Source: Octopus sinensis
Taxonomy: Eukaryota
Length of the DNA stretch: 64,000 nucleotides
Direction of reading: 5' to 3'
NCBI RefSeq assembly: GCF_006345805.1
Contig: NC_043001.1
Span: 90,582,001 to 90,646,000, forward strand
Part shown: piece after piece, positions 1,890 through 62,243 of the stretch
Numbering within the stretch: the first letter of the stretch is position 1
Layout: every line of letters begins with the position of its first letter
The notes under the pieces: generated by a model
The model's database searches: none
What the model was told of the DNA's origin: nothing
What the model saw: only the letters and a program-made list of their open reading frames with translations
Program-made: the position numbers and the translations under genes

Positions 1890-2525
1890 TAGTATAGAAT
1901 AATTTAAAATAACAATATAGCGGGATACAAAACCAGAAAATTAACTTACAGCAAAACTTGGACGCGAAAATTTAGAGTTCATTTTCAAAGTGATTACTAG
2001 AAGAATGCTCTGTGAGGGCCAAAAAAGGCAAATATAGCCGAACATTTTCCTTTTATAATCATTTTAATTATGCTTTGTTGGCTGCTTCAGTAAGCAGTTG
2101 TCATATTTCATTTTTCCTTATCATTCGTTTTAAACTATTTATCATATTTATGACATCAAGACACCAACAAATCAAAGGCAACAGAAACATGTACTGTGGG
2201 TTATATTACTAGATTATTAGATAATCTAATGCACACTACTATGTTTTCATATTTTGTTATCTTAGAATGCAATCGTATTCCATAAATGACATCAATGAAA
2301 TATGATCGTAAACAAGTTTTATATTGTGAGACTGATGGCATATTTGATTATCAGTTCTGTTTCGTGTTTCTTTTTTTAAATTTACAATTTATTATTAATT
2401 ATATTAAAAACCTAAATAGTTTTAAAGGGATTTTTTAAAATTAAGTTAAATTTAACCTAATTATAAACCATGTAAGTGAACTGCAGTAACTTTGTATAAT
2501 CACAAAACTTTAATATATTTGACAG

Positions 2526-2860
2526 ACGCAGGTGTGGCTGTATAGTAACAAGCTTGCTTCCCAGCCCCATGGTTCTGGGTTCAGTCTCATTGCGTGGCAC
2601 CTTAGGCAAGTGTCTTCTACTATAGCTTCGGGTCGACCAAAGCCTTGTGAGTGGATTTGGTAGACGGAAGCTGAAAGATGCCCGTCATATGGGTGTGTGT
2701 ATCTTTATGCCTGTGTTTGTCCCACCACCAACACCACCTGACAACCGGTTTTGGTGTGTTTACGTCCCCCGTAACTTAGCGGTTCCGCAAAAGAGACCGG
2801 CGTTGATTTGTTCGACCATAGTTACAACGGTAGTGCACCAGCATGACCGCAGCTTTAAAG
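2526..2860 (+). mobile_element. tRNA-derived SINE, family 2 (CORE-like ACCTTRGGCAAGT body; probably octopus OR-type)
   Basis: A/B-box-like head, body shared with 14307-14435 and 20291-20760, tail like CR1-like LINE 3' end. Confidence 0.85.
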
Positions 2861-14688: not shown

Positions 14689-14726
14689 AGGCGCAGCGTG
14701 ATTCTGTGCTAAGAAGCTTGCTTCCC
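14689..14726 (+). mobile_element. SINE family 2, 5' piece of copy interrupted by two LINE insertions
   Basis: AGGCGCAGCGTG...TAAGAAGCTTGCTTCCC aligns with head of intact copy at 2526-2563. Confidence 0.8.
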
Positions 14727-16711
14727 CACTGCGCATGTCAGTGCTTTTCTTCACAATGAGAGAAGTCGTGACGCTGGTTTGAAGCGTGGTAAATTATTGA
14801 GTCAAGTGAAGCTCAACTACAAGGTAAGACGTTTGTTCTTTGGGGGTTCAGTAGGGGTTTGTTGTTTGTTGTTCATCTTTTTTCAAGCAAGAAACCTCCA
14901 CTGAATTCCGGGCATTTGTCTGCCTGTAGTTGAGTGTAGTGTTTCACTTAACGGTGAAAAGTGAGTTGTTTTGGGGGCGTATCCAGCCTCCAAAAATTGT
15001 GAACTTCGTTATTTTTGTGTTCCTGTTGCTGTGTTCCTACTGTTACTGGTTGGCCTGGAGTATTGGTTGCCGGAAAACTGTGTACGTTATTTTGGGGGCG
15101 TATCCCGCCTCCAAAGGATTGAATTCTGGAATTCTGTTCCTCTAGTCACCAGTTGGCCTGGAGTACCTAGTGGCCAGAAAATTTGTGTCTGCTGTGTGCG
15201 GAACTGTTTCTCTGGAACTGTTTTCTTCCTTCTTCTTTCTTTCTTTTTTTTTTATCTTTGAACTATTTTCTAAAGAACATGGCTAGAGAAAAAAAAGGAC
15301 ACTGTCTTGGAATGGGAGATTGTCCTACACAAGGAGTGGATAAAATACTTGGAGAAGAGGACGGTGGTGTTGAGGACGTATTCAAAGTCGCTCGACACCA
15401 TCACAGTCTTCCCAAAAATTGAGATAGAAAAAGAGTGCCAAGTATGCAACGCTATGGTTGCTATTTGACATCCCTGAGGAGGCTCGAAGATTCGCGAGCC
15501 AGCCCTTGGAGGGAAAAGAAATACTGTTGTGAGAAAAAGTTGACCTGAGCTTGGGTCTGCGGGTTGCCAACCGGAATGGAACCCGAGTGGATAGAAGACA
15601 CTATCCGCGGGGTCTGGGTGGCAGCGGATCCAAGCAGCTAAACGTCAAAATGATGCCGGCAGCTGATTGGGTTGGGTCAAAAGCTATTTTGACACTGTAG
15701 ACCAATCAGCTAAAAATTTGGTTTTTCCGGATTTTTTGACAATGGCTGGGAAGGACTATCCGATGATACTTGTGGAACGCACCCCAAGTGTCACCTGTGC
15801 CTGGAACCACGCCACATTAAAAAGAACTGTCCCCAGGACCAGAGTAAGGTCCTGGAACAGTTGGTTGAGAAAGAATCTACCCCTCCCCATTTGGAGGAAG
15901 AGATGGAGACGGTCGAGAAGGTGGAAACCTCCTCAAAATGGGGACGTAAAAGGAAGAAGGTGGACAACAATGGTTGCCCACCGAGGGATCCTAAGACTAC
16001 GGGAGGGAGGGAAAATCTTCCGGACAAAACGGAAGAACTCCACCCTCCCGTGGAAAATGGGAAATTGCCGGTGGTTATTAATACACTGCCGGCATGTCCC
16101 GAAACCTCGTCGGTGGGAATTGTGCCACCAACGGAGGATGCTATGGCTTCTACCAGTATAGTGGAGGAGGAATTTGTAGCCCTTTTCCACAAACGAGGGG
16201 CACTTGAAAACTTTGTTAAAAAGTTACCTAAAGGCAGGAGGGAAGGTGTTATAGCCTGTGCTGAGAGCCCTGAGTGGCCCCCGCAGATAGCTGCAGAGTC
16301 ATATGGGAGACAGACCTATGCAGGGTGATGAACTCCTTCCCCGAGGACACATTTCGGTTCGCGCTAAAGTGCTATGACTTAGTGCCATCAAGGTGCTTGA
16401 ATTAGGTATTAAGCTTAGTCGGGCGCTGGCGGGGCGGAAATAGAGAAAAAAGCAAGAGGCTCTAGCGCCTTGTGATATGAATATGTATAGAAAAAAAGGA
16501 AGAGGCTTAGTGCCTCATTTGTAAGGAACTTGATTCCAGTTGGAACTGTGTAAAAAAAAACAATGTTTTCGGGAAGCAGCGATCGACGGGCGTCGCCTGC
16601 CTTCCATCATCAATATCGTTTATTTTACTTATCATACATATCATTTGTGTTTTGTCCACCCCGCAACTGCTTCTATCTATGTAAAGCCTTTATGGCTAAT
16701 CTAATGAAATA
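14727..16711 (+). mobile_element. Non-autonomous Tx1-like element (5' UTR, decayed ORF1, 3' tail)
   Basis: CCHC knuckle CHLCLEPRHIKKNC at ~15790-15831; no RT; 3' end CCTTTATGGCTAATCTAATGAAATA shared with neighbouring LINE. Confidence 0.75.
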
Positions 16712-16726
16712 AAGAAGCTTGTTTCC

Positions 16727-19700
16727 GGTCGTTGGCTGAGGTCAGTGTTGTTTTTGCTCCGAAAGGGATTTTATCGTTTGATATTGGATTTGTTACTGTT
16801 GGACTTGTTATTGTATTTTTGGATTGATATTATTGTTGAACCGTGCTGTTGCCCGGTATACCGGGTGATAAAAATTGTTATTTCTTTTTGTAGTCATTGT
16901 GGCAATCTTTAGACAAAATATTGCGAAAACATCGGACTTGTTAAAGTCGTTTTATACTTTTAAACCCCATGAAAAATTTTCGGTGATTACTGCTGTGACA
17001 ACCGAAAATATTGATATTCCTGTAGAGACGCTACAGTAATATTTCAAGAGAATGAGAGAGGGGGATGGGGATATAAAAATATTACCCTCCCCCAAGACGG
17101 TTAAAGCAATAATATTTAAATCGATCTATCCGAAAGACAGATGATTTTACCATTTCAAAAAGCAGAAAATTGAGAAATGTCTTGCCCTGATTTGGAAGGA
17201 CGTAATGTATATTGCGAGGAGCAAAACATATGGCACTATTGAGGTGCGTTTCGCGTCTGAAGAAAAGCCAGGGTACTTGTGGGTGAGACTATTGTATTGA
17301 GAATCTCTGTCGGAGGGAAAAACCCACCTGCTTCGAATGTGGCAAAAAGGGCCACATTCGGGCTGATTGTGAATTAAAATAAAGGAAAAAACGCTGACAC
17401 CAGGCCCTTCAAGCAAAAAGTCCCCCCACTCCTACACATGCACCAACCCCCACAAAGACAAAAACTCCCACACCCCGGTGCAAATACCTAAATAGGACAT
17501 TGGAAATAAAAAATCTCAACCCCTACACACACACATGCCCCTACAGAAATAAAATTACCCACTCCCCTGAAACCTGAGACACTTGAAAACAGAAACGCAA
17601 CTACTCCCCCCCCCGACGATACCATGGAGGTATTAGAGTGGGAGTTTACTGTGGTACGCAAGCGTACGTTGACACCCTCCTCATCCACATCCCCTACATA
17701 GAAAACAGACACGACACCTCAGAAATTTAAAAAAGACCGCGCCCAAATGTCACCGCATACTCATGGAATTTGACACTAGGCACGATTATACTCGTGATAT
17801 CCTAGTGCCATATCACAACACCAAACTATATCCTGTACATAAGGATTTGAAAAAACAATGTGCCTGGATAGGGGAAACCCTATACAGGCAACTGAAGTAT
17901 AGAAATCCAACAGCCATCTGGAGGATTGTGAACCTGCCAGGCTAGCTGAAGAAGGAGGAGAAGGAAGGGGCCACTTCACGTGTGATGAAATCGGCTCCAA
18001 CCTCTCTAGTAACTGGTAAGTAGGACCTATGCTTTTTATATAATGGCCTTACTTAACCTTGGTTGTTTGAATGTGCGTGGTCTGAGTTCGAAGTGGAAGC
18101 AGACTTGTTTCCTCGACGACCTCAGATCATACAATATACATGTGATGGTTGCTACAGATACCAAGTTGGACAGTCTACAAACCTTCTCGCCTCTCTTGAA
18201 TGGCTATGAGAAAATCATGTCTCCTAGCCAGACCGGAGGACGATGGTGTGTAGTGGTACTGATCCGTAAAGACTTGGCTCAGAAAGGACCCGAGCTAGGG
18301 GGACGAGATAAGTAATTTTAGTCACCATAACTCTGCTAAATGCAGAGTTAAAGATTTTGGCCAAGGTGCTAGCGAAAAGGTTGGCGCGGGTGGTGGACAG
18401 ACTTGGGGGGGAGTAAACTTGCGCCATCCCGGGCAGGTCGAACCACGACAATTTCTGGCGTGGTGGAGCACTGGTACATTTAGACCAGTCTAAAGCATTC
18501 GATAGGGTCGACCAGCGGTACTTGGCAGCGGTCCTCCAGAAGGCTGGCTTGGGCCCGACCTTCCACGGTTGGATTGTTGTTTTGTACAGCGACATCGAGT
18601 CTGTCGTAAAAGTGAATGGTTTCTTCTCAAAACCATTCAGGATCGAACGCTCAGTGTGTCAGGGGTGTTCCCTGTCTCCGCTTCTGAATTTGTTGGCTCT
18701 TGAGTCATTGCTGGTGAAGTTGGAGGTACTAGGGGGCGCGCCGAATGATCTGTGGTGTGGAAGTGGAGCAACGGCGTATGCAGATGACATCTCCATCATC
18801 GTGGCGGATGAGGGCCAGCTTCCAGTGGTGGGAGAGGTCATCAAAAGTTACGAGGCGGAGGCAGGAGCAAAGGTTAAGAAGGGCAAGTTAGTCGGTTTGC
18901 AACTCGGCACCTGGAGGGACAAGCCGATGACGTCCAATAACATCGTCGGGCGTTGGACGGAAGGTCCTGTTAAGCTGCTCGGGTCTGGTTTGGTTCAGAC
19001 CACCAGATAGAGAAAAATTGGAGTGAGGTAACCAGCAGAGTAACTACTCTAACCCAGACTTGGTCTGGGCGGGTGTTATCTTTGCTAGAGGAGGCGGAGG
19101 TGGTGCAGATGTTTATAGCATCAGTTATTACCTACCGTCTGACCGTGATGCCATTCCCCGATTTGTGGCTGAACAAGTTGGAGAGAATCTTTTTCCGCTT
19201 TTTGTGGAGGGGAGGAAATCCGCTTGTGAAGCGCTGTCTACTGCCAGAAACTGCTAAAGGGTGGGTTAGGGATTCCTTGGCTGAAGATGCAAAAACTCGC
19301 GTTAAGGTTGAGGCACCTCTAGCTTTACCTGGATGGGGATCAGGTGTGATCACTGCACGTCCAGTTCTACCTTCCGCATATAACGTCCTTAACGGACATT
19401 GGAGCATGGATCAAGCAGAGACCTAGACTGGCACTTCAGCTACTATTTCGGGAGAACAATACCGTCAGAAGGAGTACCACCGTGGATTTTTATAGCGAGT
19501 TAGTGGGTTTTATGTCCGAAGACGCCTTGGTGGAGACCCTGGGCTACGATGAAAATCAGTTGATCAACCTATTCAGCAGAACGTTCGGGCCGGGGTATCT
19601 GGATAATTACCAGAAATCCCTGGCTTGGCAGTGCTTCCGTGCGGCGTTACCTGTTCGATACAAACAGTCAAGGCGCGGAAGTGCTGTCTCGCCGACATGT

Positions 19701-20290
19701 CTTGCACGCATATTAAAGGGACTGATAGTTTTCGCAGAACAACTGTTCTCATCTATGGAAAGAGTACAGCTTTCGGCTGTGCCACCTCCCTCCCTTAACA
19801 GGGAAAGGAAGACTTGTTTTGTTTTTTTCTGAGTAGTAGCCATACTGAAAGAAACAGTATGGAAGACGCGTGTAAGAAAGATAGTGACAGGTACCTTTGT
19901 CTCTGGAAGGAGTTGGTAAACCCTTTTTGTTACCACCTCATAAGTAAGATCAGGCTGGAGTAGTGGTGCTTGTCGCTGAGAGCATTTGTAAAAAGATGGA
20001 AGCTTGTAGCAAGCAAGTTGAGAGTGACCGGCACCAGGTACGTGGGATCAGTGGTAGAAAGCAAAGGTTCTACCCAGATGGCTGGACTCCTTTCCTTCCG
20101 AGGCAAATTGTTGCTTTTTGCAATAATATTTATGCAAATAAATTTTTAAATTACATCTGTAATCACATCATTCATACGAACATTAATTTTTAACTAAAAG
20201 CAGCTTCTTCACCCTTTTGTACTTGTCTGTGCTTGTCTGTCCTTGTTTGTCCCATCTGTGTACTACCTTTATGGCGAATTTCATGAAATA
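16727..20290 (+). mobile_element. Tx1-like (L1 superfamily) LINE, internally deleted and decayed
   Basis: ORF1 knuckle CFECGKKGHIRADC (~17328-17371); ORF2 from 18043 CLNVRGL (APE), ITLLNAELKILAK, LDQSKAFDRVD, QGCSLSPLL, AYADD; 3' CCTTTATGGCGAATTTCATGAAATA. Confidence 0.88.
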
Positions 20291-20431
20291 AAGAAGCTTG
20301 TTTCTTAGCTACCTGGTTCTGGGTTCAATTCCATTGAGTAGCACCTTAGAGAAGTGTCTTCAACCATAGCTCCGGGCCGACCAAAGCCTTGTGAGCGGAT
20401 TTGGTAGACGGAAACTGAAAAGAAGCCCGTC

Positions 20432-20502
<71 letters not shown>

Positions 20503-20760
20503 TATATATATACTTATACGGGTGTGTGTGTAAGTTTATTTATATGTCTCTGTATCTGTGTTTGTCCCCCCACCCACCATCGCTTGACAACCGGTGTTGG
20601 TGTGTTTACGTCCCCGCAACAAGCGGTTCGGCAAAAGAAACCGATAGAATAAGTACCGGGCTTACATAGAATAAGTTTTGTAGTCGATTTCCCCGACTAA
20701 AAGGCAGTGCTCCACCATGGCCGCAGTCAAATGGCTGAAACAAGTAAAACAATAAAAGAA
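20291..20760 (+). mobile_element. SINE family 2, 3' piece resuming after the LINE insertions, with internal (TA)n
   Basis: AAGAAGCTTGTTTC...TGGTTCTGGGTTCAA...CCGACCAAAGCCTTGTGAG...colinear with copy at 2526. Confidence 0.9.
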
Positions 20761-20949
20761 TATTACACACACATATACACACACACACAATGTTTCTTCC
20801 ATTTCTCTTAAAATGTTTCTTCTATTTTTACGTGTTAGAATACCGATGCTTTCTTCTCTTTCGTCTTCGACTAACGATCTAAACCTCCGCTTACTTATTA
20901 TAAAACTGGGTACAAAACCTTATCTCTTTCCTTTAATTTGCTGTGATAC

Positions 20950-22032: not shown

Positions 22033-22610
22033 TCTACTCTTGGCACAACGCCCGAAATTTTGGGGGAGGGGACCAGTCGATTACATCGACCCCAGTACGT
22101 AACTGGTACTTAATTTATCGACCCCAAAAGGATGAAAGGCAAAGTCGACCTCGGCGGAATTTGAACTCACAACGTAACGGCATACGAAATACCTATTTCT
22201 TTACTGCCCACAAGGGGCTACACACAGAGTGGACAAACAAGGACAGACAAGCGGATTAAGTCGATTATATCGACCCCAGTGCGTAACTGGTACTTAATTT
22301 ATCGACCCTGAAAGGATGAAAGGCAAAGTCGACCTCGGCGGAATTTGAACTCAGAACGTAGCGACAGACGAAATACCTATTTCTTTACTACCCACAAGTG
22401 GCTAAACACAGAGAGGACAAACAAGGACAGACAAACGGATTAAGTCGATTATATCGACCCCAGTGCGTAACTGGTACTTATTTAATCGACCCTGAAAGGA
22501 TGAAAGGCTAAGTTGACCTCGGCGTAATTTGAACTCAGAACATAACGGCAGACGAAATACGGCTACGCATTTCGCCCGGCATGCTAACGTTTCTGCCAGC
22601 TCGCCGCCTT
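22033..22610 (-). mobile_element. SINE family 1 trimer (one head, three bodies, 184-bp period)
   Basis: Body repeats at ~22075, 22259, 22443; single TSD AAATCTCAACTTT at 22020-22032 and 22614-22626. Confidence 0.9.
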
Positions 22611-24955: not shown

Positions 24956-27900
24956 GTAAGTTAAACAGAGTTCTTTAATTTTCTATGCACTTATCGAAAC
25001 TAACATTTCTTTCTTAATATTTTGCACATTGAAGGGCAGCAAGCTGGCAGAATCGTTAGCATGCAGGGCGAAATGTTTAGCGGTATTTCATCTGCCGTTA
25101 CTTTGTGAGTTCAAATTCCGCCGAGGTCGACTTTGATTTTTATCCTTTCGAGGTCGATTAAATAAGTACCACTGGGCAATAAAGAAATGAATATTTTGTA
25201 CATTAAAAGCGGCGAGCTGGCAGAATCGTTTGCACTCTGGGCAAAATGCTTAGCGGCATTTCGTCCTTCTTTATATTCTGAGTTCGAATCACACGGAGGC
25301 TTATTTTGCCTTTCATCCTTTCGGCGTCGATAGAATAAGTACCAGTTCAACAGTGTGGTCGATGTAACCGACTTAACCGTTCTCTCGAAATTGCTGGCCT
25401 TGTGCCAAAATTTGAAACCAGTATTATTCTACTGTTAGGTAGCGAGCTGGCAGAATCACCACCGTACTTGACTAAATACTAAGCAGCTTTCTCAAATTTC
25501 GTCCGTCTTTACGTTCTGAGTTCAATTCTGCTCATGTCGACGTGCCCTTCCATCCTTTCAAGGTCGATAAAATAAGTACCAGCTAACCACTGAGGTCTAT
25601 CCAGTCTACTTGCCACCTGCCTTGAAATTGCTGGCCTTGTGCCAAAATTTAAAACCAATATTTTGCACACTGAAAGCAGCGAGCTGACAGAATCGTAAGC
25701 ACTCCAGGAAAATTGCTTAGCGGCAATTCGTCCGTCTTTACATTCGGAGTTCAATTGCTGGCCTTGTGCCGAAATTTGAAACCATTATTTTGCAGTCTTT
25801 GTTCTGAATTCAAATGCTGACGAGGTCGACATTGCCTTTCATTCTTTCTGGGGTCGATAAAACAAGTACTAGCTGATGTAATCGACTGCTCGCTGACCTC
25901 GAAATTGCTGACATCATGCCATAATTAGAAAGATTGGCAGAATCGTTAGAGCATTGGAAAACAGTGATTTGTGGTCTTAGGTATTTTTTACATTCTGAAT
26001 TCAAACCCCACCGAGGTCAACTTTCTCGTTAATCCTTTCGAGATCGATAAAATAATGTATTAGTCAAGAACTTGGGACTTGCTGTATTAAATAACATCCT
26101 CCATCTCCATTTCTGACCTTTTTCCTATTTTAGAAACCATTATTTTCCATGTTACAAATCTTTTAAATGGTAAACGTTAGAAATATAAATTTATACGTTT
26201 CTATTGCTTTATCTCAATTCATATTTGATACAACTTTTAAAATATCTTATTTGTTGACATAATTAAATTCTAATTTATAAATTTCTAATTTATTTCTAGT
26301 TCTTGCTATGCGGAAGTGCAGAAGGTAACCAATATTTCTATATTGCATATTTTAACATCGCAATAGCCAATTAGAAGATGGTTAAGTTAGTTTGCTTGAA
26401 TATAAATCTATGTACATCTGTTAAAGTAGACTACAGAAAGGGATTCTTTTCTTCAGCTGGTGTCTTGATAGGATCAGCTAATTCTGAATCTTTAACTGCT
26501 ATTTATTATTCGGAATCACATCGCTATTCACTCTCCAAATATGATATATAAAAAAGCACCTTTTGGAATATTCATTGCGTACATTTTGAAGTCATCTTTG
26601 CGGTTAAATCTTCAATGTTTGAACTACTCAGAGTCTTGTCTCACATTACTAGCATCGTTTTTTTCTTATCTGCTGAAAACCATCCAAAGAAATTCGCCAG
26701 CAAATTTGTAAAGCAAACGCTGGAACATTACGGACAATAAGAGTGAGCTGTGAGTACAAGTACAAAATACAAAATAGATCAATGTGAGCGAATCGAAAGG
26801 CACTCACCAATTTTTTTTTTTTTTTGTTCAGAATTATGATTTACAACAAAAGGGATTCGAGATACACTTGACAATGGAGAAAATTCACTATTTTATATAT
26901 ATATATTTAAAGATGTCCTAGCCTCTTATCACTTCCAGTATGGCAAATTTGTATGGAATCTCCCTCTCGATAATGTTGACTGTGATAATAAATATACATT
27001 TTAAACGACTACTCGAGCACCTGATTATTACGGCTATATTCTAGATTCTATTACAATATTTACATATTATACCCATACTAAAAATAAAAATATAAAGAAC
27101 TGCGCTGCATCACAAATGAATTGATGAGCCTGTCATCGTCTTGGTAACAAATTATTGAAGCACTCCTAATATAAATTAAATGTAAAATTCTTTGATCGTC
27201 TAGAGATCTCGTATACAAAACTTTTAATTAACAAAATAAGACATAATGCAATACAAATAATATTATTAATTCAAACTTCTTTCTATTTCAGGTAATTTAA
27301 TCCGTAAGAGTGTGGAAACACTAACAGAAGATGAAGTTCTCAATCTACAGGTAGCTCTTCGTGTCATGCAGGATGATGCATCCCCAACTGGTTTCCAAGC
27401 CATCGCAGCCTACCATGGTGAGCCAGCTGACTGTAAGGCACCAGATGGAAGTACTGTGGTCTGTTGCTTGCATGGTATGCCAACGTTCCCTCTTTGGCAT
27501 AGATTGTATCTTGTACAGTTTGAGCAAGCAATGGCCTCCCATGGTTCCACACTTGGTGTTCCTTACTGGGATTGGACTCAACCAGTGGATCATCTTCCTG
27601 AGCTCGTTAGCCATCCTCTTTTTATGGATCCCTCTTCTCACAAGGCTAAAAAGAACGTCTTCTACTCAGGCGATATCGCATTTGAGCAGAAGGTCACTGC
27701 TAGAGCCGTTGATACAAGATTGTTCCAATCTTCAAAGGGAGGAAAGAACTTCTTATTAGATGGTATTCTCTTAGCTTTAGAGCAAGAAGACTATTGCCAT
27801 TTCGAAGTTCAGTTTGAAGTTGCTCATAATCCAATCCACTATCTCGTTGGTGGTCGCTTTGCACATTCAATGTCTAGTTTGGAGTATACTTCATACGATC

Positions 27901-30900
27901 CACTCTTCTTCTTGCATCATTCGAACGTTGAACGTCTGTTTGTTATTTGGCAAGCTCTGCAGAAGCATAGAGGTCTTGACGGTAGTGCCAACTGTGGCTT
28001 GAACATGTTCCATAAGCCAATGGAACCGTTTGGTCGTGACACCAATCCTATTAGTCTTACTAAAGATCACGCCAAGGCTGTTGATTTGTTTGACTACAAC
28101 GAATTAGGATATGATTATGATGATCTTCACCTCAATGGAATGGACATTCCACAGCTAGATACGCTTATGAAAGAACACCAACAGCACCCGAGAGCATTTG
28201 CTAATTTCAGATTAGGAGGTATCAAGACCTCTGCCAACGTTCGAGTCGCAGTTTGTGTTCCAACCGATGACAAAAGACACAGCGATAACTGCAACAATCA
28301 TGTCGGTTCTTTCTTTATTCTTGGTGGTGTACATGAGATGACCTGGAACTTCGGTTATCCCTTCCTCTTTGAGATTACAGATGTTGTCAAATCTCTCGGT
28401 GTTCCTTTGGATGGCAACTATTACATTCATGCTGATGTTACTGCAATTAATGGCACTCTCTTACCCGATGGCACAATCCCAAGACCGACTGTCACATATA
28501 TTCCAGCTCATGACTTTAAAGATGGTAAGTAAAAATCATTTATATATTTAGAGAATTTTGAGAATTCTGTTTATATTGCCGTATAAACTGAATCTCCAAT
28601 TACGATCTAAACATAAAACTGAGTCACCAAATACCCATTGGGTTCATCGTCACACCTTAAAATATTTCCAAACGGGAGATTCTTTTCGGATAATACAACT
28701 ATATCGCATTTTAAATACAGAATAATTAAATCAGGGTCGTCAGAATAACATCCTTAGGATCTCTTGCTTAAATTTCAGACTTATTTTACAAATAACAGCT
28801 GCATTATGAAGTGTATATCTGTCGGTATAATATGGAACAATATATATCTTTTGTCATGGAGTTATATAGAAGTGTAGATAAAAAAAAACATCAAGTGTAG
28901 TATGCATAAATATAAATGATACTGTTTATGAATTCTTCAACTCATCAAATTTACGATTTCAGTTAAGCACAGTAAAATCATAATAGACATTAAAGTTAGA
29001 TTTATATAATTGTTACATTTACATCATAATATCATTGTAAACCATAAGTAACATAGAAATTTAAATATATTCGATTATAGAGTCTGCAAAGAAAGTAGAC
29101 ATATTGTAATCAGTAATGTTTTTGACATAATTGTGTTTTAATTTTATATCAAGAGAGATAATCTGAGTGTCGACAATATTTCAGGATTCACTCCATCTAT
29201 TGAAAGTTCAAATTCTTATACTCATTACTAATACATTTTTATTCTGGCAGATTTATTTTCTTAGAGCAAACTTTGTATTTTGTATTCTTCAATAGTTATC
29301 ACTTTGACTTTTTTATAGCTGATATGGCACCAGTAGATAAAACTGGTTTAACCGTCCGTAAAGATCTTCGCAGTTTAACGACAGAGGAAGAGCATGAACT
29401 GAGAATTGCCATGGAACGTTTCATGGATGATAAATCCATTGACGGTTACCAAGCCTTAGCTGAATTCCATGGTCTTCCAGCGAAATGTCCAGAACCTGAT
29501 GCTATCAACCGTGTTGCATGCTGTGTTCATGGAATGTCCACTTTCCCACACTGGCACAGACTTGTTGTCATGCAGTTTGAAGATGCTCTTATTGCCCGTG
29601 GATCCCAGATAGGTGTTCCTTATTGGGACTGGACGAAACCTAGCTCAGAATTGCCACCTATGGTTGCTGCTGAAACATATGAAGATCCTTACACAAAAGA
29701 AGTAAAACCAAATCCCTTCTTCCATGCACCAGTCGAGTTTTTGCACAATGATGTCTTTACTAAAAGAAGCGTTGATGCAAGGTTTGTAAATTTTATAATA
29801 TTCTAAATATTGTATCCTGAAATAGCTTCATTCAAACATTTAAGAATAAACCTCATTTTCCATCTTCTTTCGAAACACACTTTAATTAATAATTAGTAAT
29901 ACAGCGTTTCATCAACAATCACACAGAAACCTTTACGATATCTATAGCTACAAAGGTAACAGCTAGGGCCATATGACGTTTTCAAATTTGTAGATCACTT
30001 TGAACAAAACATTCCAATTGTATTATTGATGTTATTATTTAATACTGAATTTAAATGCTCCTATATCTTTGCGTCTCATTTCCTCATATTAAATAAATAC
30101 TATTAAGAAACTCATAAAAGATGACGCTAATTTCATTTTAAATATATGTTAAACTATTTACCGGCAAGATATATAAAGCCCTATATATGTTGTATGAGTT
30201 GTATTTTAGTTATTATTCGTATATGAATCTGTATAGATTTCATTACTTTCATATTTATGATCTGTTTTCATTCTAATTGATTAGATTGTTTGAGAAACCA
30301 ACAAAAGGACATCACGGATATCTCTATGACGGTATGATGTTAGCCTTCGAAGAAGAAGATTTCTGTGATTTCGAAGTACAGTTCGAAGTTACCCATAATG
30401 CAATTCATGCTTGGGTTGGTGGCAATGAACCTTATTCTATGTCGTCTTTGCATTACACGTCATTTGATCCCCTCTTCTGGCTACATCACTCACAAGTTGA
30501 TAGATTGTGGGCAGTATGGCAAGCATTGCAGATCCATCGTGGAAAACCCTACAAACCATACTGCGCTCTTTCAGAGGTCCATCGTCCTTTGAAACCATTT
30601 GCCTTTGAACCACCACTGAATAACAACAAACATACATATCGCCACGCAGTACCAACAGAGGTTTATGATTATCAGTCAGACCTTCATTACACTTATGATA
30701 CGCTCTTCTTCGGAGGAATGTCCGTTAGAGAGCTTCAGAGACATATCGAAGAAGACAAGGCTAAAGATCGTGTGTTCGTTGGCTTCCTTTTGATGGGTAT
30801 CAAAACATCAGCAAATGTTGACATCACTGTCGACAGTGCAGGTAACACATACAATGCTGGATCAATAACAATCCTTGGAGGCAGCAAAGAGATGGAATGG

Positions 30901-33900
30901 AGATTTGATCGACTTTACAAGTATGAAATTACTGGAGCACTAGCTGAACTTGGTGTAGATATGCGCGCTGATTATAGCATAACCTTACAAATTACCGATA
31001 TCAATGGAACAGCTCTTCCATCCACCGCAATTCCAGATCCAATTGTGATATTCACTCCAGGAAAAAGTAAGTGCTCTGAAATGTCTTCTCATTCTTGATT
31101 TATTCATAAAAATATATTCTAAATATCAAACTAGATATAAACTGTATTCACCACACTCACTCGTTTTTATTATAATTTGATTTTGTTAATAACATTCTCA
31201 TTGAAGTTAATTTTAATTTCATAAACATAACAGGTTCAAGAATCTCATGACGATTTTGTTTTGGATTTTTTTCAGAGGAATCAGACGTTGTCTTTGACGA
31301 ATTATATCGTTCCAGACGAGACGTTTCTTCATTGACCCATGCAGATATGAATACACTGAGGAAGGCTTTACAAGCTTACGAAGACGATAAAAGTCCCAAT
31401 GGATATCAGCAAGTAGCTGCTTTCCACGGTTCCACACAATGGTGTCCTAGCCCTGATGCTGCAGTCAAATATGCTTGCTGTCACCACGGAATGGCAACAT
31501 TCCCTCATTGGCATAGATTGCTGACAATCAACTTTGAAAACGGTCTGCGAAGAAATGGTTATCAAAATGGTATTCCTTACTGGGATTGGACTCGCCCGAT
31601 TTCGGAACTGCCTGCTCTGGTAAAAGAAGAAACATATCTTGATGAAAATGGGGAAGCTCACCCGAATCCATTCTTTAGTGGCGTTATTGATGAAGCTGGT
31701 GCTCAAACCACCCGAGCTCTTAATCCAGAGCTATTTGTTCAACCTCCTTTCGGAGAATTCACTCCCTTGGCAAATGAAGTTATGTACGCTTTAGAACAAG
31801 AAGACTTTTGTTCGTTCGAAGTACAATTCGAAATTGCTCATAATCACATCCATGCACTTGTTGGAGGTGGAGAACAGTATTCTATGTCATCACTTGAATA
31901 CACAGCCTACGATCCTCTTTTCATACTTCACCATTCAAATGTTGATAGAGTTTGGGCCATTTGGCAAGCTCTGCAAAAGTTCCGAGGACATCGATACAAC
32001 AGTGCTAACTGTGCTATTGAAACTCTACGTAAACCAATGTCTCCTTTTAGTCTCACCAGTGACATCAATGTTGATTCAATGACTCGAGAACATTCAGTTC
32101 CTTTTGATGTGTTTGATTACAAGAAGAATTTCCATTACGAATATGATGTTCTTGAATTGAATGGATTATCTATTCCAAAGTTACACAGAGAAATTAACAG
32201 ACGTCGTATGAAGGGTCGCGTTTTCGCTACTTTCATGCTCGAAGGTATTAAACAGTCTGCATTAGTTGAATACTATATCAGGGCTCATGGTGCTACTGAT
32301 CAGGTGAAAGCTGGAGAATTTTATGTTCTGGGTAGTGCTAACGAAATGCCTTGGAAATTTGACCGAGTTTACAAAGCTGATATCACGAAGCAGATGAAGG
32401 AAGCACATCTACATTATAACGACCAATATCACATCGAATATCACGTGAAAGACTTGGCTGGAGCTGAAATAGCCGATGTTAATCTTGAACCTGCAATTGT
32501 CTACGAACCAGGTCTTGGTAAGTATCCATTATTAAATGTAGAAGTAAAAAAAATTAATGATATAAGTTATTTTTCTCGAACGCTTATGTTTTATCATTAA
32601 TTCCTTATATTAAGAAAATATTAATATAACATACGAAATACAACAAAAACATTTAACTAATTCAGTTAACCAATTTTCTTATTTTCTACAGGTGATTTCG
32701 GCGAGGTGGGTGTATGGGTTGAACCTGTAACCAGTGCAAACCGAATTAGAAAGAATCTCAACAGTCTTACTACCGGCCATATCGAATCACTGAGAAATGC
32801 TTTCAAAGATATGAAAAATGATGGTAGATACGAAGAAATTGCCGCATTCCACGGATTGCCGGCTCAGTGTCCTAACAAAGATGGTAGTAAAGTATATACA
32901 TGTTGTATACATGGAATGCCAACTTTTCCACACTGGCATAGATTATATGTTGCTCTAGTAGAGAACGAATTATTAGCCAGAGGTTCCGGTGTAGCTGTAC
33001 CTTATTGGGATTGGATACAACCATTTGATCATCTTCCAGCTTTGGTCAATGAAGCCACTTACTACAATTCAAGAACGCTTCACATCGAACCAAATCCATT
33101 CTTTAAAGGAAAGATTTCTTTCTTAAATTCGGAAACCAATCGAGATCCACAACCTAAATTATTTGGTAACAAATACCTTTACGAACACACACTTTTCGTC
33201 TTGGAACAGACTGACTTCTGTGAGTTTGAAGTCCAGTTTGAAGTACTTCACAATACTATCCACTCGTGGCTCGGTGGCCGTGATCCTCACTCTATGTCGT
33301 CGCTGGATTTTACAGCTTATGATCCAATCTTCTTCCTTCATCATAGTAATATTGATAGGATATGGGCAATTTGGCAAGAATTACAACGTTACCGAAAGCT
33401 ACCTTACAATGAAGCTAATTGCGCATTGCCTCTGCTTAATGTACCTATGCGACCATTCAGTAACACTACTGCAAATCATGATCGGATTACACTCACTCAT
33501 AGCACTCCAAATGATGTCTTTGACTATCAAAATGTTTTACACTACAAATATGACACTTTGTCCTTCTTTGATCTCACTATTACCCAGTTGGAACATCTTA
33601 TTGAAGAGAGAAAGGCTCATGACAGGATTTTTGCTGGATTCTTGCTTCATGGTGTCAAAGCTTCGGCTGACGTACACATATACATTTGTGTACCTACTTC
33701 TAAGCATGAAGAAAACTGTGCTCACGAAGCTGGTGTCTTCTCTGTCTTGGGAGGAGAGTCCGAAATGCCATGGCAATTTGACCGTTCCTTCCGATATGAA
33801 ATAACAGATCAGCTGAAGTTGTTAGGTCTCAACCAAAACAGCCATTTCCGTGTTAAAACTGAAGTCATAGCTGTCAATGGATCATCAATCCATGCTAACA

Positions 33901-36900
33901 TTTTCCCAAATCCAACTATTATTTATGTTCCAAAACAAGGTAAGAGATATATTTTTTTTCTATTTTTATTCCATTTCCATTTTTATTCCAATCTCAAGCA
34001 CAGAATGCGACGGCCTATTGTTCTGATGGCATTTGCAGCTGTTTGAGTCAACAGAAAATTCATTATTCATCCAATAACCTAGCATAGTTTTTCTGAAGTG
34101 AAGAGCTTTTTCATGACTAAGATCATTACGAGCTAACGAGACACTTCTCAGTTTTTTCCCCTGTGATCTCTACTTACAGTTATGTATTATATGGCAGTTA
34201 GGCAGTTATTACTTGTTCCATTTGTTTTATGAAAGTTTTCGAGACTAAGTGACAAACAATAGCATACGGTCTCACTTTTCTATTTAAGGAGTAATCTGCA
34301 TATGTTAATCCTAATAATCTAATATGTTAATTCTACATAACAAGTAACAATAACTCTATTCCAATATCTTTTCAGGTCATTTAGCTGACTTCAAACATGA
34401 AGAAAGCAATGGAAATCTTGTACGAAAGAATGTTGAACGACTCTCTTTGTCTGAGATGAATTCATTGGTACATGCTCTCAAAAGAATGCAGAAAGACAAG
34501 TCATCTGACGGTTTTGAAGCAATCGCATCATTCCATGCTCTGCCTCCTCTTTGCCCAAATCCGACTGCCAAACATAGACACGCTTGTTGTCTTCATGGTA
34601 TGGCTACGTTCCCTCACTGGCACAGGCTCTTCGTCGTTCAGTTTGAACAAGCTTTACATAGACATGGAGCTACAGTTGGTGTTCCTTATTGGGATTGGAC
34701 CCGTCCTATTTCAGAGATTCCTGCTTTCATAGCCTCTGAGATGTATTCTGACCCTTTCACTAAGATAGAATCGCATAACCCATTTAATCATGGTCATATT
34801 TCTTTCATCAGTGAAGACACTATGACTAAACGTGAGGTCAGCGAATATTTGTACGAACATCCTGTATTGGGAAAACAGACATGGCTCTTTGATAACATCG
34901 CTTTAGCTTTGGAACAGACTGATTATTGTGATTTCGAAATACAATTAGAGATTGTTCACAATGCCATTCACTCTTGGATCGGTGGAAAAGAAGAACTTTC
35001 CTTGAACCATTTGCATTATGCAGCCTATGATCCATTATTTTTCCTACATCATTCTAATGTCGATAGATTGTGGGTTATTTGGCAAGAACTGCAGAAGCTA
35101 AGAGGTCTCAGTGCCTATGAATCCCATTGTGCTCTTGAGCTTATGAAAGTCCCATTGAAACCGTTCTCCTTCGGAGCCCCTTACAATTTGAATGCACACA
35201 CCACTAAATTGTCCAAACCTGAAGACATGTTTAGATACAAAGACAACTTCCATTATGAATACGACATCCTAGATACTAACAGTATGTCTATTGATCAGAT
35301 AGAGGCATATATCAGACACCAAAGAGAACACGATCGTGTTTTTGCTGGCTTTTTGTTGAGTGGATTTGGTTCATCAGCATATGCAACATTTGAGGTAAGT
35401 ATAGAGACAAATCTTATTATTTATCGAAAGAATTCTAAAACAATATCAGGTTTCTAAAATTATTTGCCAAAACCTTATTTCAAGAAGTGCATTAAAATAA
35501 ATTTTAGAGAATATAAAAGATTAAAGAAATTACTGAATACTGTAACACCTCCCTTTCTCAATTTTATATTTAGATTCCAATTTCGGATATCTAAAGTGTA
35601 ATATACAGGGTTGTCCAAAAGTAGGTGGACAATAAATTATAACATTTATTTTGAGATTACATATACAATTATATTTACTAATACAATTATTACATTGACA
35701 ATCAAATTTTATTGCGTACAATAATACAAAAGCGATTAAATTTTATCAACGCAGGCATTCAAACTTTTGTCTATCACAATTTACACAGCTTTGAAGTCTA
35801 TTTCTTACGTTTCGACAAACATTTTTGCACAAGTCTCTTTGTGTATTAGTTACTTGAGATGCATCTCTTATGTAAGTTTTCAAATAATTACTACTTCTTG
35901 GTTTTCGACTATAGACCTTGTCCTTGAGCACTTTCCCAAAAAAGAAATCAATTGGGGTCAAGTCAGGCGAATATCCCTGCCAATCAATTGGCCAGTCCAT
36001 TTCACAGGAAATGTTTCGTCAAGATACTCACAGACTTCTCTTGAATAGTGTGGAGAGGCCATATGTTGGAAATAAAGGTCATGTGAATTAGACTGTTGTT
36101 TTCACTGTGGAGCAACTTGATTCATTAGAATTTTGAGATACTTATCGCCTGTGACTGTTCCATCCAAAAATATGGATCCTAAAACACAAGAACTTGAAAT
36201 ACTACCCCAAACCGTGACACCAGACTGGTTTATATGTTGCTCTAATGTTAATTGCATATTCCCACAATACCAATAATTATAATTGAGTCTGTTAATTTGA
36301 CCGTATAATTTGAAAGAAGGTTCATCGGTCCGCACAATGTTACCTAAGATTATTGGATTTTCTTCAATACCATTCATCTTTATCTCACTACAATGCTGTC
36401 GCCTGTCTGGGTCATCCTCTAATATGCCATGAAATAACCGTGGACGATAAGCTTTCAGCCTAAAAGATTTCAGGATCCGAATAATAGAGGATCGTGAAAT
36501 GCTCAATTCCAAAGAGGTTCACCTGGTGAACTTTTTTAGACTGCGAACAAATGCTTCAGCGACAAGTTGCTTATGATCCTCTCTTCAGACTGTTTTGGGT
36601 CGACCAGTTTTTAGAGCATTAAGAATTGAGCCAGTAGCATCGAATTTCTCATGAATGCGTTAAATAGTTTGTCTCTGTGAAGCTTAAGTACTAAATGTTT
36701 CAACCCATTTTGTTAACGGTTTCAGCATTTCGAGATTTCCAATACTCTTTTAACACCCATTTTCTTTCATCAGTATTTAAATTATTTGCCATTACGAGTT
36801 CTATGAATTATATTTAAAAAAAAACAGATTAATTTAGTTAAATTTAGTTATAAAATATAAAGAATATATTACAGAAATAACATTGTTATAACCGATACAC

Positions 36901-39900
36901 AAACCTATTCGACCTACTGTCCACCTACTTTCGGACCACCCTGTATAAATGAATATTCAAATAATTATTCCACATTTTTCTTAAATGAATAATGTAATAT
37001 AATTATTAGTACGTCTTAGGTAAATTAATGACCTAAGTACGTAAATATATAAAGAGTGTATTTATTTCGTCTCACTTTTAATATATTTTAGATCTGCGTT
37101 GAAGGAGGAGAATGTCACGAAGGAAGTCACTTTGCTGTGCTTGGAGGCAGTACAGAAATGCCATGGGCCTTTGACCGTCTCTATAAGATAGAAATTACTG
37201 ATGTTCTTGCTAATAATAATTTAGCTTTCGATTCACCTTTCACAATTAAGACGAAAATAGTTGCTCAAAACGGAACCGAATTGCCAGCAGGCATTCTTCC
37301 TGAAGCAACTGTAGTAAGGATCCCACCAGCCAGTAAGTACCTTTGCTTCCTATAATATATAAATACAAATATTTATGCATAAACAGGTCGACATTTCACA
37401 CTAATTTTCTATTCTTTCAATTATCTTTTCAGAGAAAGACATCGATGTTGACATTCCACTAAATCATATCCGACGAAATGTTGATTCTTTGGACGAAAGA
37501 GATATCCAGAATCTTATGGCAGCACTTACACGTGTTAAGGAAGACAAAAGTGACCATGGATTCCAGACTATCGCTGGTTATCATGGTTCAACGATGTGTC
37601 CTAGTCCAGATGACCCAAAATATGCCTGTTGCCTACATGGAATGCCAGTCTTCCCACATTGGCATCGTGTTTATTTGTTACATTTTGAAGATTCTATGCG
37701 CCGACATGGCTCCAGTGTTGCCACTCCTTATTGGGACTGGACAGATAAGCTTACGAAACTGCCCAGACTTTTAGGAGATCCTGACTACTATGATGCTTGG
37801 ACTGATAACGTAATCGAGAATCCTTTCCTTAGAGGCTACATTGAACATGAAGACACCTACACAGTCAGAGACATAAGACCGGAACTATTTGAAATCAGTG
37901 GAGGAGAGGGATCTACACTTTACAGACAAGTACTTCTCATGCTTGAACAAGAAGACTATTGCGACTTCGAAGTGCAATTTGAAGTTGTTCATAACTCTAT
38001 TCACTATCTTGTTGGTGGTCACCAGAAATATGCCATGTCCAGTTTGGTTTATAGTTCCTTTGATCCTCTCTTCTACATTCATCATTCAATGGTAAATAGC
38101 AAATAATTCATATATTTACCTTCATTTCTAATAATATTGTCTTTCTTTCCATAGTTTTCAAAATTATATTATGAAGTAAAATTAAATCTTCTTTCATCAT
38201 GCTACTTCTGCAAAGATCAACATCTTCTAACAGTCGCTCGTATATTTCAGTCAGTTGGAACGAATATATTTTATAAATAGCTTTCTTGATTCACTTTGTT
38301 ATTTCATCACATATTTTGGTGACGTTTTAAGTGATTTTCATCGTGTAAAGATCATTGTATCATTGTTCCGCCATAGAAGGACGTTTTTTCCTATCTTTTC
38401 TTTCTCATTAAATTCAGGTTGATCGTCTCTGGGCTATTTGGCAAGCTCTCCAGGAACACAGAAAATTACCTTATGATAAAGCTTACTGTGCCCTAGAGCA
38501 ACTGTCATTCCCGATGAAGCCGTTTTCTTGGGAAACCAACCCGAATCTACATACACGAGCTGCAGCAACACCACAGCATCTATTTAACTACCATAAACTT
38601 GGTTATAAATATGATAATCTTGACTTCCATGGAATGGATATTGATCAATTGGAGAAGACTATTCATAAACACCAGAACACAGACAGAGTTTTTGCTTCAT
38701 TCTTACTTTTTGGCATCAAAACTTCAGCTGATGTCCATTTGAAACTCTGCAACGACACAACTTGTGAAGACGCTGGTGTGGTCTTTGTACTTGGTGGCGA
38801 CAATGAAATGCCATGGCATTTTGATAGAACATACAAGATGGATATTACTCATGTTATCCATAAAATGCATATTCCTCTGGAAGACCTGTACGTTCACGGA
38901 AGCACTATTCACCTTGAAGTTGTAATTGAAACAGTTGATGGAAAAGTATTAGATTCCAGTTCTTTACCTGCTCCTACAATGATATATGTCCCAGCTAGAG
39001 GTTTGTTGAATATTGTATTCTCTTTCTAACCTTTTTCTCTTCTCTTTAACTTTACGTCAAATATCAAGTTATTTTTGTCAGTTGACTGTTAAAACTGTTA
39101 CCGTCAAGGTTTGTCCATTTGTTCATATATTTCGACGAATCCATTGTTCAAAACAGGTATTCATTTTTTGTTCTTCTACAGATTTCAAGAAAGAGGTACA
39201 CAAGATAGCCGCAGAAGGTGCCATAATCAGGAAGAATGTCAATAGTTTGACTCCAACTGACATCAAAGACCTAAGAGACGCCTTAGCTAAAGTACAAGCT
39301 GACTCTTCTGACAATGGTTACCAGAAAATCGCTTCTTATCACGGAATACCTCTCAGTTGTCATTATCCCAACGGCACAGCTTACGCATGTTGTCAACATG
39401 GAATGGTAACTTTCCCTCACTGGCATAGATTGTTAGTTAAACAAATGGAAGACGCTTTAGTTGCTCATGGTTCTCACATTGGTATTCCCTACTGGGACTG
39501 GACAACTACTTTCGCTAATTTACCTGTACTGGTCACTGAGAAGGAAAACAACCCCTTCCACCATGCTCATATTGATGTTGTCAATAAAGATACAACCAGA
39601 GCACCGAGAGCTCAACTTTTTGATGATCCAGAAAAAGGAGATAAATCATTCTTCTACCGCCAGATAGCACTTGCTCTGGAACAAACAGATTTCTGTGATT
39701 TTGAAATCCAGTTCGAAATCGGCCATAATGCTATCCATTCTTGGGTTGGAGGTAGTAGTCAATATGGTATGTCAACCCTTCACTATACTTCCTATGATCC
39801 TCTCTTCTACCTTCATCACTCCAATACTGACCGTATTTGGGCTGTATGGCAAGCATTGCAGAAGTATCGAGGATTGCCTTACAATTCTGCCAACTGTGAA

Positions 39901-53555: not shown

Positions 53556-56500
53556 ATGATGAAGATTCCTTGTCTCTTTGCGATCGTCTTCGCCGTAAGT
53601 TGAGCAGATTTCTTTACTTTTTTATGCACGAATCGAAATCAACTTTTCTATTTTATTATTTTGTCCAATGAGGGAAATGGGACGGCTGAATCATTAGAAC
53701 GCAGGAAAATGCCTTGTGGCCTTTTTTGGGCCTTAACGTACTGGATTGAAATCTTTCCCAGGTTAACTTTGTCTTTCATCCTTTCGGGTGTCGAAAGTAC
53801 CAGGCTATTAATGCGGTCGATGGCATTAACTAAGCCCTTACACTCAAACAGCTGACCTGGTGCCTAAATCATAAACTGTTATCTTTGCACATTGCCGGAG
53901 AGTATATTGACAGAGTCATAAGAGCGTCGGATAATACGCTTTGTGATATTTGTCCCCGTTCTACATATTTTGAGTTCAAATCCTGCCGAGATCAACTTTG
54001 TCCACGCTCTTTATATTCTGAGTACAAGTTCCGTCGAGGTCAACTTTGCTTTCATTCTTTCGGTGTCTAAAATAAGTAACAGTTAAACACTGGGGTCGAT
54101 GTAAGTGACTTACCCTCTCTCCTAAAACTTCTGGTCTTATCTAAAAATATGAAACCATTAAATGCAGATAGCTGGTAGAATTGTTAGCGCTTTGGGTAAG
54201 ATTCTAGGCGCTGATTCTTATGGCTCTATAATTTCTGACATCAAATTGCATCGAAGTCCACTTTCATTATTTCAAGGTCGATAACGTACAGTTAAATACT
54301 ATCGTCGATATAATTGACCTGCATTTCCCTCAAAATTGCTGACCTCATCCCAAAATTAAAAAAACATTATTTCATACACTGAGGCCAGCGAGCCGATAGA
54401 ATAGCTAAGAGCGTCGAAATATGCCTTCGGGTATCTACGATATGAATTGAAACGATATGAGTTAACTGAGGTTAACTTTGACTTTCATCCTTACGGGGTC
54501 GATGAACAAAATTACCAGCCAAGTACTAGGATCGATTGTATGAGTTAATGCTTGCCGCTCATAACTGATAGCCTTGTGCTTACATCAGAAATGATTACTT
54601 TTGAACGTCACAGGGTAGCAGGTTGAGGGAACCAATACAGCGTCGCAAAATATATAGTGGGGTACTAATCACCGCTCTATATATTCGGAGTTCAAGTTGC
54701 GCCGAGATAAATGTAGCATTTCATCTCCTGGGGTCGATAACATGAAGTATCAACCAAGAACTGGGAATGATGGTACAAACGAAACCCTTCCCTCAAAATT
54801 CTGGTGTAGTTCCTTCATTAGAAACCATTATTTTCCATGTCAAAAATCTTTTAAATGGTAAATGCAAGAAATAAAGAATTTCTATTGCTTTGTCTTCTCA
54901 ATTCATAATTAATACAGTTTTTAAATGTCTTATATCTAGATATAATCGGAAACATTTCTTTTTTTTTTCCTGCTTCTTTTAGTTCTGGCTTTGCGGATAC
55001 ATCGCAGAAGGTATTAAATATTTCCTTTTTATATATTATAATTGCCATATTGTCATTTGATAGGGAAGCAATCAGAAGAGGGATCAGTTAGTTTGGCTAA
55101 GTATCGACATGTAAATTTCTCAAAATATACTACATAAAGAGGTGTTTTGGTCAGTGTGTGTCTTGTTAGAATCTACTAAATCTGAAACTGTTACTGCTGT
55201 TATAATAAAAAAAAGGAATCACTATTCACTCCGCTAAGCTGATTTTAGCATAGATGTTACACTTTATTGCTCACATTTTGTAATCACAAATATAACATCG
55301 AAGTTCTGTTACAAATCTGTATCGCATTGAAAACAGTAACGAGCTGCATATACAGTTAAATAAGGTCGATGGGACCTGGAAAAAATGCGTCGACCAAAGA
55401 TTATTTGTTCACTGGGTTGTAATTTATACCACAGAATATCATTCGAGACACAATTAGTAATGAAGAGAAATCTCTATTGATATGTACTCTACAGACAGTA
55501 CTAAATATTTGAAGTTGCCCCAAACTTCTTACGGTCTCGATCTAAATAGATGTATACATTACAGTGAATTGTTTTAATGGAGCACAAAGCAGTTATTGCT
55601 CTAATCTTGCTTTGGAAATGATATTAAGATATTTTACAAACAAAAGAAGTACATATATTTTAAACCACGGTGCGAATCTAATGAATTAAGCGTTTAAAAA
55701 AACAAAGTAGTAGGAGATATCTATTGTTGTTCGGGATAATTTTATTTTAGTTCGAATGTGTCTTTGTAGCACAAAAATATACAAACTTTGACTGACTTTG
55801 AAAATTAAGATAAATTGGCCTCAATGTAAGATTTGTAGATGAAACCGAAAGTAAAATATTTTGTCCGTATATATTTACACACGTAAACTCATTTCTGCAC
55901 TTAACAAATGGCATCATTGAAATCTCATTCGAATTATCTGCCATCAGGATCCTGCAGAGTTTAAGGTTATGCTGATAACGTTCACTAAGTACTTTATAAC
56001 TATGTTTATGGAAGCAGAGACAACGGTTCTAAATATACCCTAAATTGAGTGAATAATAAATTACAGTGATTATAAAATTCCTTTCTTATATTGCTAAAAG
56101 AACAAAAAAAGTGAAAAAACAGGAGGGTTCAGATATGTAACTAGATACTTCATTGTATTAGATGTGGCAGTCTACACCTTCAGCCACTTCAACAATATTT
56201 AAATAAAAGATAATACTAATTATATTTTTTATTTCTAACCATTTCAGGTAATTTAATCCGTAAGAGTGTGGAAACACTAACAGAAGATGAAGTTCTCAAC
56301 CTACAGGTAGCTCTCCGTGCCATGCAGGATGATGCATCTCCAACTGGTTACCAGGCTATCGCAGCCTACCATGGTGAGCCAGCTGACTGTAAGGCACCAG
56401 ATGGAAGTACTGTGGTCTGTTGCTTGCATGGTATGCCAACGTTCCCTCTTTGGCATAGATTGTACCTTGTACAGTTTGAGCAAGCAATGGCAACTCATGG

Positions 56501-62208: not shown

Positions 62209-62243
<35 letters not shown>

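Follow-up and report, generated by a model that had tools for sequence, protein, structure and literature searches.

Evidence that an L1/Tx1-type LINE lineage of Octopus sinensis targets a fixed base in the head of an abundant SINE

INTRODUCTION

A 64,000-nucleotide stretch of the Octopus sinensis genome (NCBI RefSeq assembly GCF_006345805.1, contig NC_043001.1, positions 90,582,001 to 90,646,000 of the forward strand; the whole of it is called the window here) contains two retroelements stacked inside a single short interspersed nuclear element (SINE). A sequence-only reading of the window had proposed that they belong to a site-specific long interspersed nuclear element (LINE) lineage which uses this abundant SINE as its target. 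Junctions collected across the genome, described below, support the core of that proposal.

RESULTS

Two elements stacked in one split SINE

The features of the locus are as follows (ORF, open reading frame; RT, reverse transcriptase; EN, endonuclease).

2524..2850, + strand: uninterrupted copy of the target SINE, with an empty site at 2547
14690..14710, + strand: upstream portion of the target SINE's head, with a decayed A-box region, aligning colinearly with the intact copy at 2525; the same head precedes elements genome-wide
14711..14725, + strand: motif copy 1, the target site as regenerated at element 1's 5' end; it has the element-type ending CTTCC, as in other full-length copies of the element-1 type
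14726..16711, + strand: element 1, a decayed ORF1-only, nonautonomous derivative of ~2 kb with a CCHC knuckle near 15774-15848; nearest relative 80% identical
16708..16713, + strand: AATAAA arising only across the element 1/target junction, the sole AATAAA in the last 165 nt
16712..16726, + strand: motif copy 2, between the elements, sharing a private T with copy 3
16727..20290, + strand: element 2, a decayed copy of the autonomous LINE with an internal deletion (RVT_1, E 6e-13; compared with a natural near-intact relative by tblastn and blastn)
Parts of element 2, + strand: ORF1 pieces, 16974-18005; EN residues 1-79, 18043-18279; RT and C terminus, 18272-20038
20287..20292, + strand: AATAAA arising only across the element 2/target junction
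20291..20770, + strand: motif copy 3 and the SINE remainder (B-box region, TA microsatellite, and 3' body), matching the intact SINE at 84% (145 nt) and 83% (103 nt)

The motif AAGAAGCTTGYTTC has exact matches at 14711, 16712, and 20291, just as the sequence-only reading had it, and a fourth site with 1 mismatch at 2547 in the intact SINE; at 2 mismatches the chance mean for the window is 1.13, and the three matches are exact. The repeat spans 15 nt at copies 1 and 2. When 14689-14710 is joined to 20291-20440, the product is colinear with the SINE at 2525-2700, which bears out the claim that removing the inserts restores the SINE, and in both elements a shared tail lies directly 5' of the motif, again as claimed. 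DNA likeness between the two is limited to the last ~50 nt. The same reading described two distinct elements, the second of them an ORF1 plus apurinic endonuclease (APE)/RT LINE. Two stacked elements are indeed present, but element 2 falls short of that description: relative to the near-intact relative, its ORF2 lacks residues ~80-497 (~1.26 kb, near 18271-18280), from endonuclease residue 80 to the RT start, and both of its ORFs carry stops and frameshifts. As to the order of insertion, the junctions are compatible with either. Nearest-relative identity (80% for element 1 versus 84-87% for element 2, with sampling differing between the elements) leans toward element 1 having inserted first.

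Genome-wide targeting of one SINE base

The tail pattern has 190 exact matches in the genome (control, 0). Among the first 30, the motif follows within 3 mismatches in 29 and the SINE body in 26, against a control rate of 8 in 251,179 positions; the flanks that the sequence-only reading had suggested collecting are therefore related, not random. Across all families, exact forward junctions between tail and SINE number at least 1,473 (control, 4), for comparison with ~112,000 exact empty-type sites. In the youngest, 5.4-kb family, all 86 exact tails run into the motif, with the register off by one base in a few (the listing was read by eye, and the tail pattern disallowed one letter at position 14). 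A search with the RT protein, which is blind to flanks, gave the same picture; 29 young copies were fetched, one of them ending in an assembly gap, and the 28 with a visible end all adjoin the same SINE base. These proportions (86/86, 28/28, and 29/30) lie far above the share of flanks, >20% with one sequence, by which non-LTR (long terminal repeat) retrotransposons are called target specific (PMC4494074; this and the other papers cited here are drawn on in part). Orientation is nearly uniform: a search for the mirror junction returned 4 matches (control, 2), of which 3 are genuine reverse insertions. Taken together, these junctions strongly support the conclusion that a lineage of L1/Tx1-type LINEs is inserted genome-wide at a fixed base in the head of an abundant SINE.

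The elements insert independently

The two element types also occur separately (L043 and L087; L235, L252, and others; L numbers are our locus labels), not always together as a composite would require. At L043 a relative of element 2 stands alone in a split SINE, and many relatives of element 1 are likewise solitary in split SINEs. Inserts truncated at the 5' end, 51 to 1,652 nt long, sit between SINE head and SINE body; where readable, duplications at truncated copies measure ~13-16 nt, and private variants appear on both sides of the insert at L013, L001/L031, and L102. Moreover, the young copies are 98.3% alike, yet their SINE bodies differ and even belong to different subfamilies. Because the element types occur alone and truncated copies lie in split SINEs with duplications of 13-16 bp, this is targeting and not a composite unit.

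Ends of the elements

At their 5' end, full-length copies bear 16 nt of the site in the element's own version. Both ends are available for 61 young copies, of which 23 occupy targets of the CTTACC type, and in 21 of these the 5' side reads CTAACC. Variants at motif positions 1-9 (59 copies) are confined to the 3' side in 8 cases and to the 5' side in 0, and are shared in 1. The 5' motif of full-length copies is thus mostly the element's own end. This modifies the earlier view of the triple motif as a serial target-site duplication, in which serial insertion holds and pure duplication does not (21/23 of the 5' copies being element type). On the related question of whether the motif belongs to the LINE's terminus, the answer differs by end: at the 3' terminus it does not, and at the 5' end of full-length copies it mostly does.

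Mismatched targets more often show an additional T at the 5' junction (17/23 versus 8/37, p 1e-4). We considered this T as a heritable variant and rejected the idea, as it shows no clustering on the tree (14 changes versus 15.9, p 0.19); the same holds for the position-13 variant on the 3' side, which does not cluster on a 52-copy young tree that is itself poorly resolved (15 changes versus 16.0, p 0.36). In both window elements and in the young family, AATAAA becomes complete only through the first AA of the target, which predicts a read-through RNA. The pentamer TCAGT, present in the window at 14738 and 16742 and previously proposed as an initiator, found no support in that role: the youngest family starts without it, and the RNA start, as read from junctions, lies 5' of it. 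ORF1-only elements have a recurrent GCGCATG-type motif at their extreme 5' end (window, 14731-14738); we take it to resemble an NRF1 site and, possibly, to be an internal promoter element. At L177 (~950-990), the 5' untranslated region of the young family contains a second, older-looking partial target motif ~18 nt into the element, which may be left over from a 5' end captured earlier.

Stacking

Ten of the 61 young copies share a junction with another element, where random site choice would give 2.6% (p 4e-6); the excess persists at three times the counted occupancy (p 0.02). All 7 stack partners examined are ORF1-only. Since older-looking partners lie on both sides of young copies, both regenerated sites seem usable. 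Three-element stacks in one SINE occur at L200 and L224, and at L081 a two-element stack lies beside a separate occupied SINE. Element ends or junctions also face each other at short distance in two places (G000:C3:167417828 and 167419634; G000:C1:114496025 and 114496091), possibly through inversion or twin priming.

The target SINE and its site

The CTTACC-type SINE site is GGTAAG-N7-CTTACC, an inverted repeat directly 3' of an A-box-like stretch, and the target SINE is represented by 16,486 plus 95,642 exact 19-mers. Its head is tRNA-like (z ~4-5 against tRNA-Ala, -Lys, and -Thr of the same genome). ARAGORN calls a tRNA there at a relaxed threshold only, and Rfam gave no tRNA match on the window copy; its one match on the intact SINE, to isrJ, was dismissed as chance. 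The idea that this SINE is the LINE's own partner was likewise discarded, the SINE 3' end being unlike the LINE tail. The reverse insertions stand at the symmetric position of this repeat; one of them, L262, is a very short, truncated copy with a duplication of 13-14 bp ending at the forward site, which suggests two putative CTT|ACC nicks 13 nt apart. Within the host tRNA genes sampled, 29 distinct genes of seven isotypes only, GGTAAG occurs in none; two tRNA-Ser genes carry GGTTAAG without the rest of the site.

Autonomous and ORF1-only forms

The autonomous LINE is 5.4 kb long and encodes ORF1 and an ORF2 with APE, RT, and zinc finger domains. In its natural near-intact copy, L171, ORF1 has 467 aa and a zf-CCHC domain (PF00098, E 2e-5), and ORF2 has 1,130 aa with APE (PF03372), RT (PF00078), and zf-RVT (PF13966) domains; no other of the 61 copies has an ORF2 frame of >1,100 aa. 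The best solved relative of ORF2 is human L1 ORF2p (E 3e-65), ahead of R2 (E 6e-20), which places the lineage, on sequence likeness, closer to L1 than to elements of the restriction-like endonuclease type. A CCHC zinc knuckle in ORF1 is typical of the Tx1 clade. Neither of two homologue searches nor the Atlas returned a Tx1-named relative, the nearest named protein being a hypothetical protein of Argonauta hians (64%), and "Tx1" as applied to the lineage here denotes resemblance. In the RT tree, all relatives are unnamed or hypothetical; the L095 row, which is the RT of another element in that locus, was ignored, and the flanks of L105, L111, and L096 stayed unresolved.

The ORF1 of the element-1 type is 20-37% alike to the autonomous ORF1 over matched stretches. 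ORF1-only forms fall into two or more families, with ORF1s that resemble the autonomous one at 38-40% and 25-31%, and downstream of an element-1-type ORF1, ORF2 is absent in 29/29 relatives, the sole ORF2 match among these loci (L259) being a neighbor on the other strand. The claim that element 1 is an ORF1-only derivative is therefore confirmed. With an ORF1 homologue, no ORF2, and a 3' tail in common, the ORF1-only elements have the attributes of HAL1-like elements.

Target history and a (CT)n sister clade

Young copies avoid the older AAGAAG subfamily of the SINE, which accounts for 1 of 86 occupied sites against 14.7% of exact sites (p 2e-5), and for 0/69 occupied young sites against 17/63 neighboring empty SINEs (p 9e-7). 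Older LINE families, like those of the window, are mostly in AAGAAG sites. In the next RT group of the genome, 19/19 copies end directly on (CT)n, and this clade is sister to the SINE-targeting one (SH-aLRT, a branch support test, 99, 99, and 98 on a quick tree whose outgroup was not clean). The two are 75% alike in RT and 55% in EN. The endonuclease hairpin loop has a role in target choice known from L1 and Tx1L work; the stretch corresponding to it differs between the sister clades, with conserved flanks. No loop change between A-type and T-type copies was seen among the decayed copies compared.

The young sister family in (CT)n is ~5.5 kb long and mostly 90-97% alike (L151-L170), with tandem copies at L154/L155 and L159. 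A second SINE family (window, 22044-22610, - strand, with 184-bp tandem units; also L012, L014, L087, L109, L119, and L186) has a ~60-nt tail resembling that of the LINE lineage, in part like the SINE-targeting clade and with an ending similar to that of the (CT)n clade. Its flanks are not target specific, and it is a candidate partner SINE of a related LINE. Elsewhere in the window, ~27200-39900 and 56200-63200 hold hemocyanin functional-unit repeats, which belong to two gene copies that are nearly identical (92-100% across long stretches).

DISCUSSION

We consider it highly likely that these observations are explained jointly by targeting of a fixed SINE base, a probably sequence-specific nick with priming from it, regeneration of the site, and reuse of the regenerated site, leading to stacks. 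The endonuclease would recognize sequence in the SINE head, nick there, and prime reverse transcription. The likely cuts are at GGT|AAG in the bottom strand and, 13-16 nt beyond it, in the top strand close to the mirror half of the inverted repeat. On the simplest reading of the 5' junctions, and by analogy with what has been proposed for R1 and R2, the full-length RNA would begin in the target copy, and the cDNA end would anneal to the upstream overhang, usually overwriting it. The ORF1-only forms may borrow ORF2 via the common 3' tail; we infer such mobilization in trans because tail and target are shared. Each insertion would split the A box of the SINE from its B box and leave two motif copies, whose reuse by later insertions would produce a stack like that in the window.

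Several points weigh against this account. Junctions are the sole source from which nick positions and RNA ends were read. The fixed 13-nt stagger draws on two reverse copies, the only ones with both sides visible, whereas duplications at forward truncated copies range over ~8-16 nt with blurring by microhomology. Occupied sites show free variation at positions 11 and 13, within the mirror half. The account does not cover the extra T present in 25/61 young copies, and 2 of the 23 informative copies retain a target-type 5' end. Finally, two of the first 30 tails (L024 and L026) have no SINE body after them.

The motif borne by most 5' ends might also mean that SINE halves travel with the LINE, or that the two elements move jointly, without any targeting; the same ORF1-only families do recur upstream of young copies, with L175 and L200 in one small clade. 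We nevertheless hold such hitchhiking to be next to impossible. Recurring stacks differ in their internal junctions (plain versus extra T), truncated copies as short as 51 nt keep the SINE head upstream, near-identical copies have different SINE bodies, both element types are also solitary, and reverse insertions exist. It is also very improbable that host tRNA genes are the true target and the SINE a look-alike decoy. tRNA genes are a Tx1 target class, and the SINE head is tRNA-like, but GGTAAG is missing from the tRNA genes sampled (0/29, with only seven isotypes covered), and all 86 young flanks are of the SINE type. A tether to host proteins is a somewhat better alternative, though still an improbable one. 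Ty3 and TRE5 are targeted at tRNA genes via RNA polymerase III (Pol III) factors, and a LINE tethered to such factors on young, promoter-intact SINEs would need sequence only to fix the register; the position of the site directly 3' of an A-box-like stretch and the preference for a young SINE subfamily would both fit. Against this, regenerated sites lacking an A box or a B box are reused (the 10/61 stacked copies), a tRNA gene is found in 0/86 flanks, and the sister clade, 75% alike in RT, sits on (CT)n, which points to sequence recognition.

One further idea adds to sequence-specific targeting and does not replace it. The read-through 3' flank of the RNA may pair with the nicked primer strand, so that a lineage would prefer the SINE subfamily of its mother copy. 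The junction-spanning AATAAA, the avoidance of AAGAAG sites by young copies, and the absence of a visible A-versus-T shift in the endonuclease loop are in its favor, and for R1 it has been proposed that transcripts include flanking target able to anneal to the bottom strand (PMC2718515). The unclustered position-13 variant (on a poorly resolved tree) and the reverse insertions, at which the match to a read-through flank would be incomplete, speak against it, and we regard such RNA assistance as possible but doubtful. Equally tentative, and in our view rather unlikely as a whole, is a self-renewing, RNA-assisted system in which a change in the endonuclease loop brought about the switch from (CT)n to the SINE, copies of the landing site stand at both RNA ends, the target supplying the rest of the poly(A) signal, and the lineage tracks the turnover of SINE subfamilies while splitting their Pol III promoter.

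Among described Tx1 families are some with other transposons, snRNA genes, or microsatellites as targets (PMC4494074; PMC4640811), the targets including Mariner, piggyBac, Harbinger, and LTR elements, U2, U5, 5S, satellites, and microsatellites (Kojima 2015, PMC4494074). Like our lineage, Tx1-Mar and other crocodilian Tx1 elements, and Tx1L in Tx1D, are APE-type LINEs inserted into interspersed repeats, with nonautonomous partners on the same target and tandem insertions (PMC4494074). In contrast to the lineage described here, the targets listed in the consulted parts of that account include no SINE head, and Tx1-Mar uses two regions, where ours uses one base in one orientation (1,473 junctions versus 3). 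Kibi and Koshi are Tx1 families of (TC)n and (TTC)n (PMC4494074), to which our (CT)n sister clade may be compared; the SINE-targeting clade has another target despite its likeness to that sister. R1 and R2 in 28S ribosomal DNA likewise show precise 3' junctions and no poly(A), R1 makes a similar ~14-bp duplication at truncated copies, and upstream target on the full-length RNA has been proposed to anneal and yield precise 5' junctions (Stage and Eickbush 2009, PMC2718515). These belong to other clades, however, and occupy a conserved host gene, whereas here the target repeat is itself mobile and changing, and the site would be regenerated by the copy that the element carries. HAL1, HeT-A, and Ag-Sponge also keep ORF1, lack ORF2, and share the 3' tail of an autonomous form (PMC5786205); unlike them, the octopus genome has at least two ORF1-only families with a sequence-specific target, and these are the partners in 7/7 stacks examined. 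L1-Tx1 elements are listed for coleoids in an account that does not give targets in the part consulted (PMC8967140), and Dada DNA transposons use tRNA A boxes as insertion sites (PMC8869645). The literature searched yielded no SINE-targeting LINE or Tx1 element; the search did not extend to Repbase Reports or to subscription papers, nor to the figure labels and supplements of PMC4494074, which may list such a target. For this strongly supported lineage, the SINE head is a new target class within a known kind of target-specific LINE.

Known site-specific LINEs sit mostly on conserved host repeats. Here the target is a fast-changing mobile element, hit with near-complete base precision in >1,400 copies. 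Young sister clades on the SINE head and on (CT)n, with differing endonuclease loops, make a change in APE specificity directly testable, and the 5' junctions are a large natural data set on second-strand priming, a step that is still open. The shift from an older to a younger SINE subfamily is a test case for protein versus RNA determinants of target choice. If the self-renewing system is real, one parasite would be tracking and disabling another, the LINE following the SINE.

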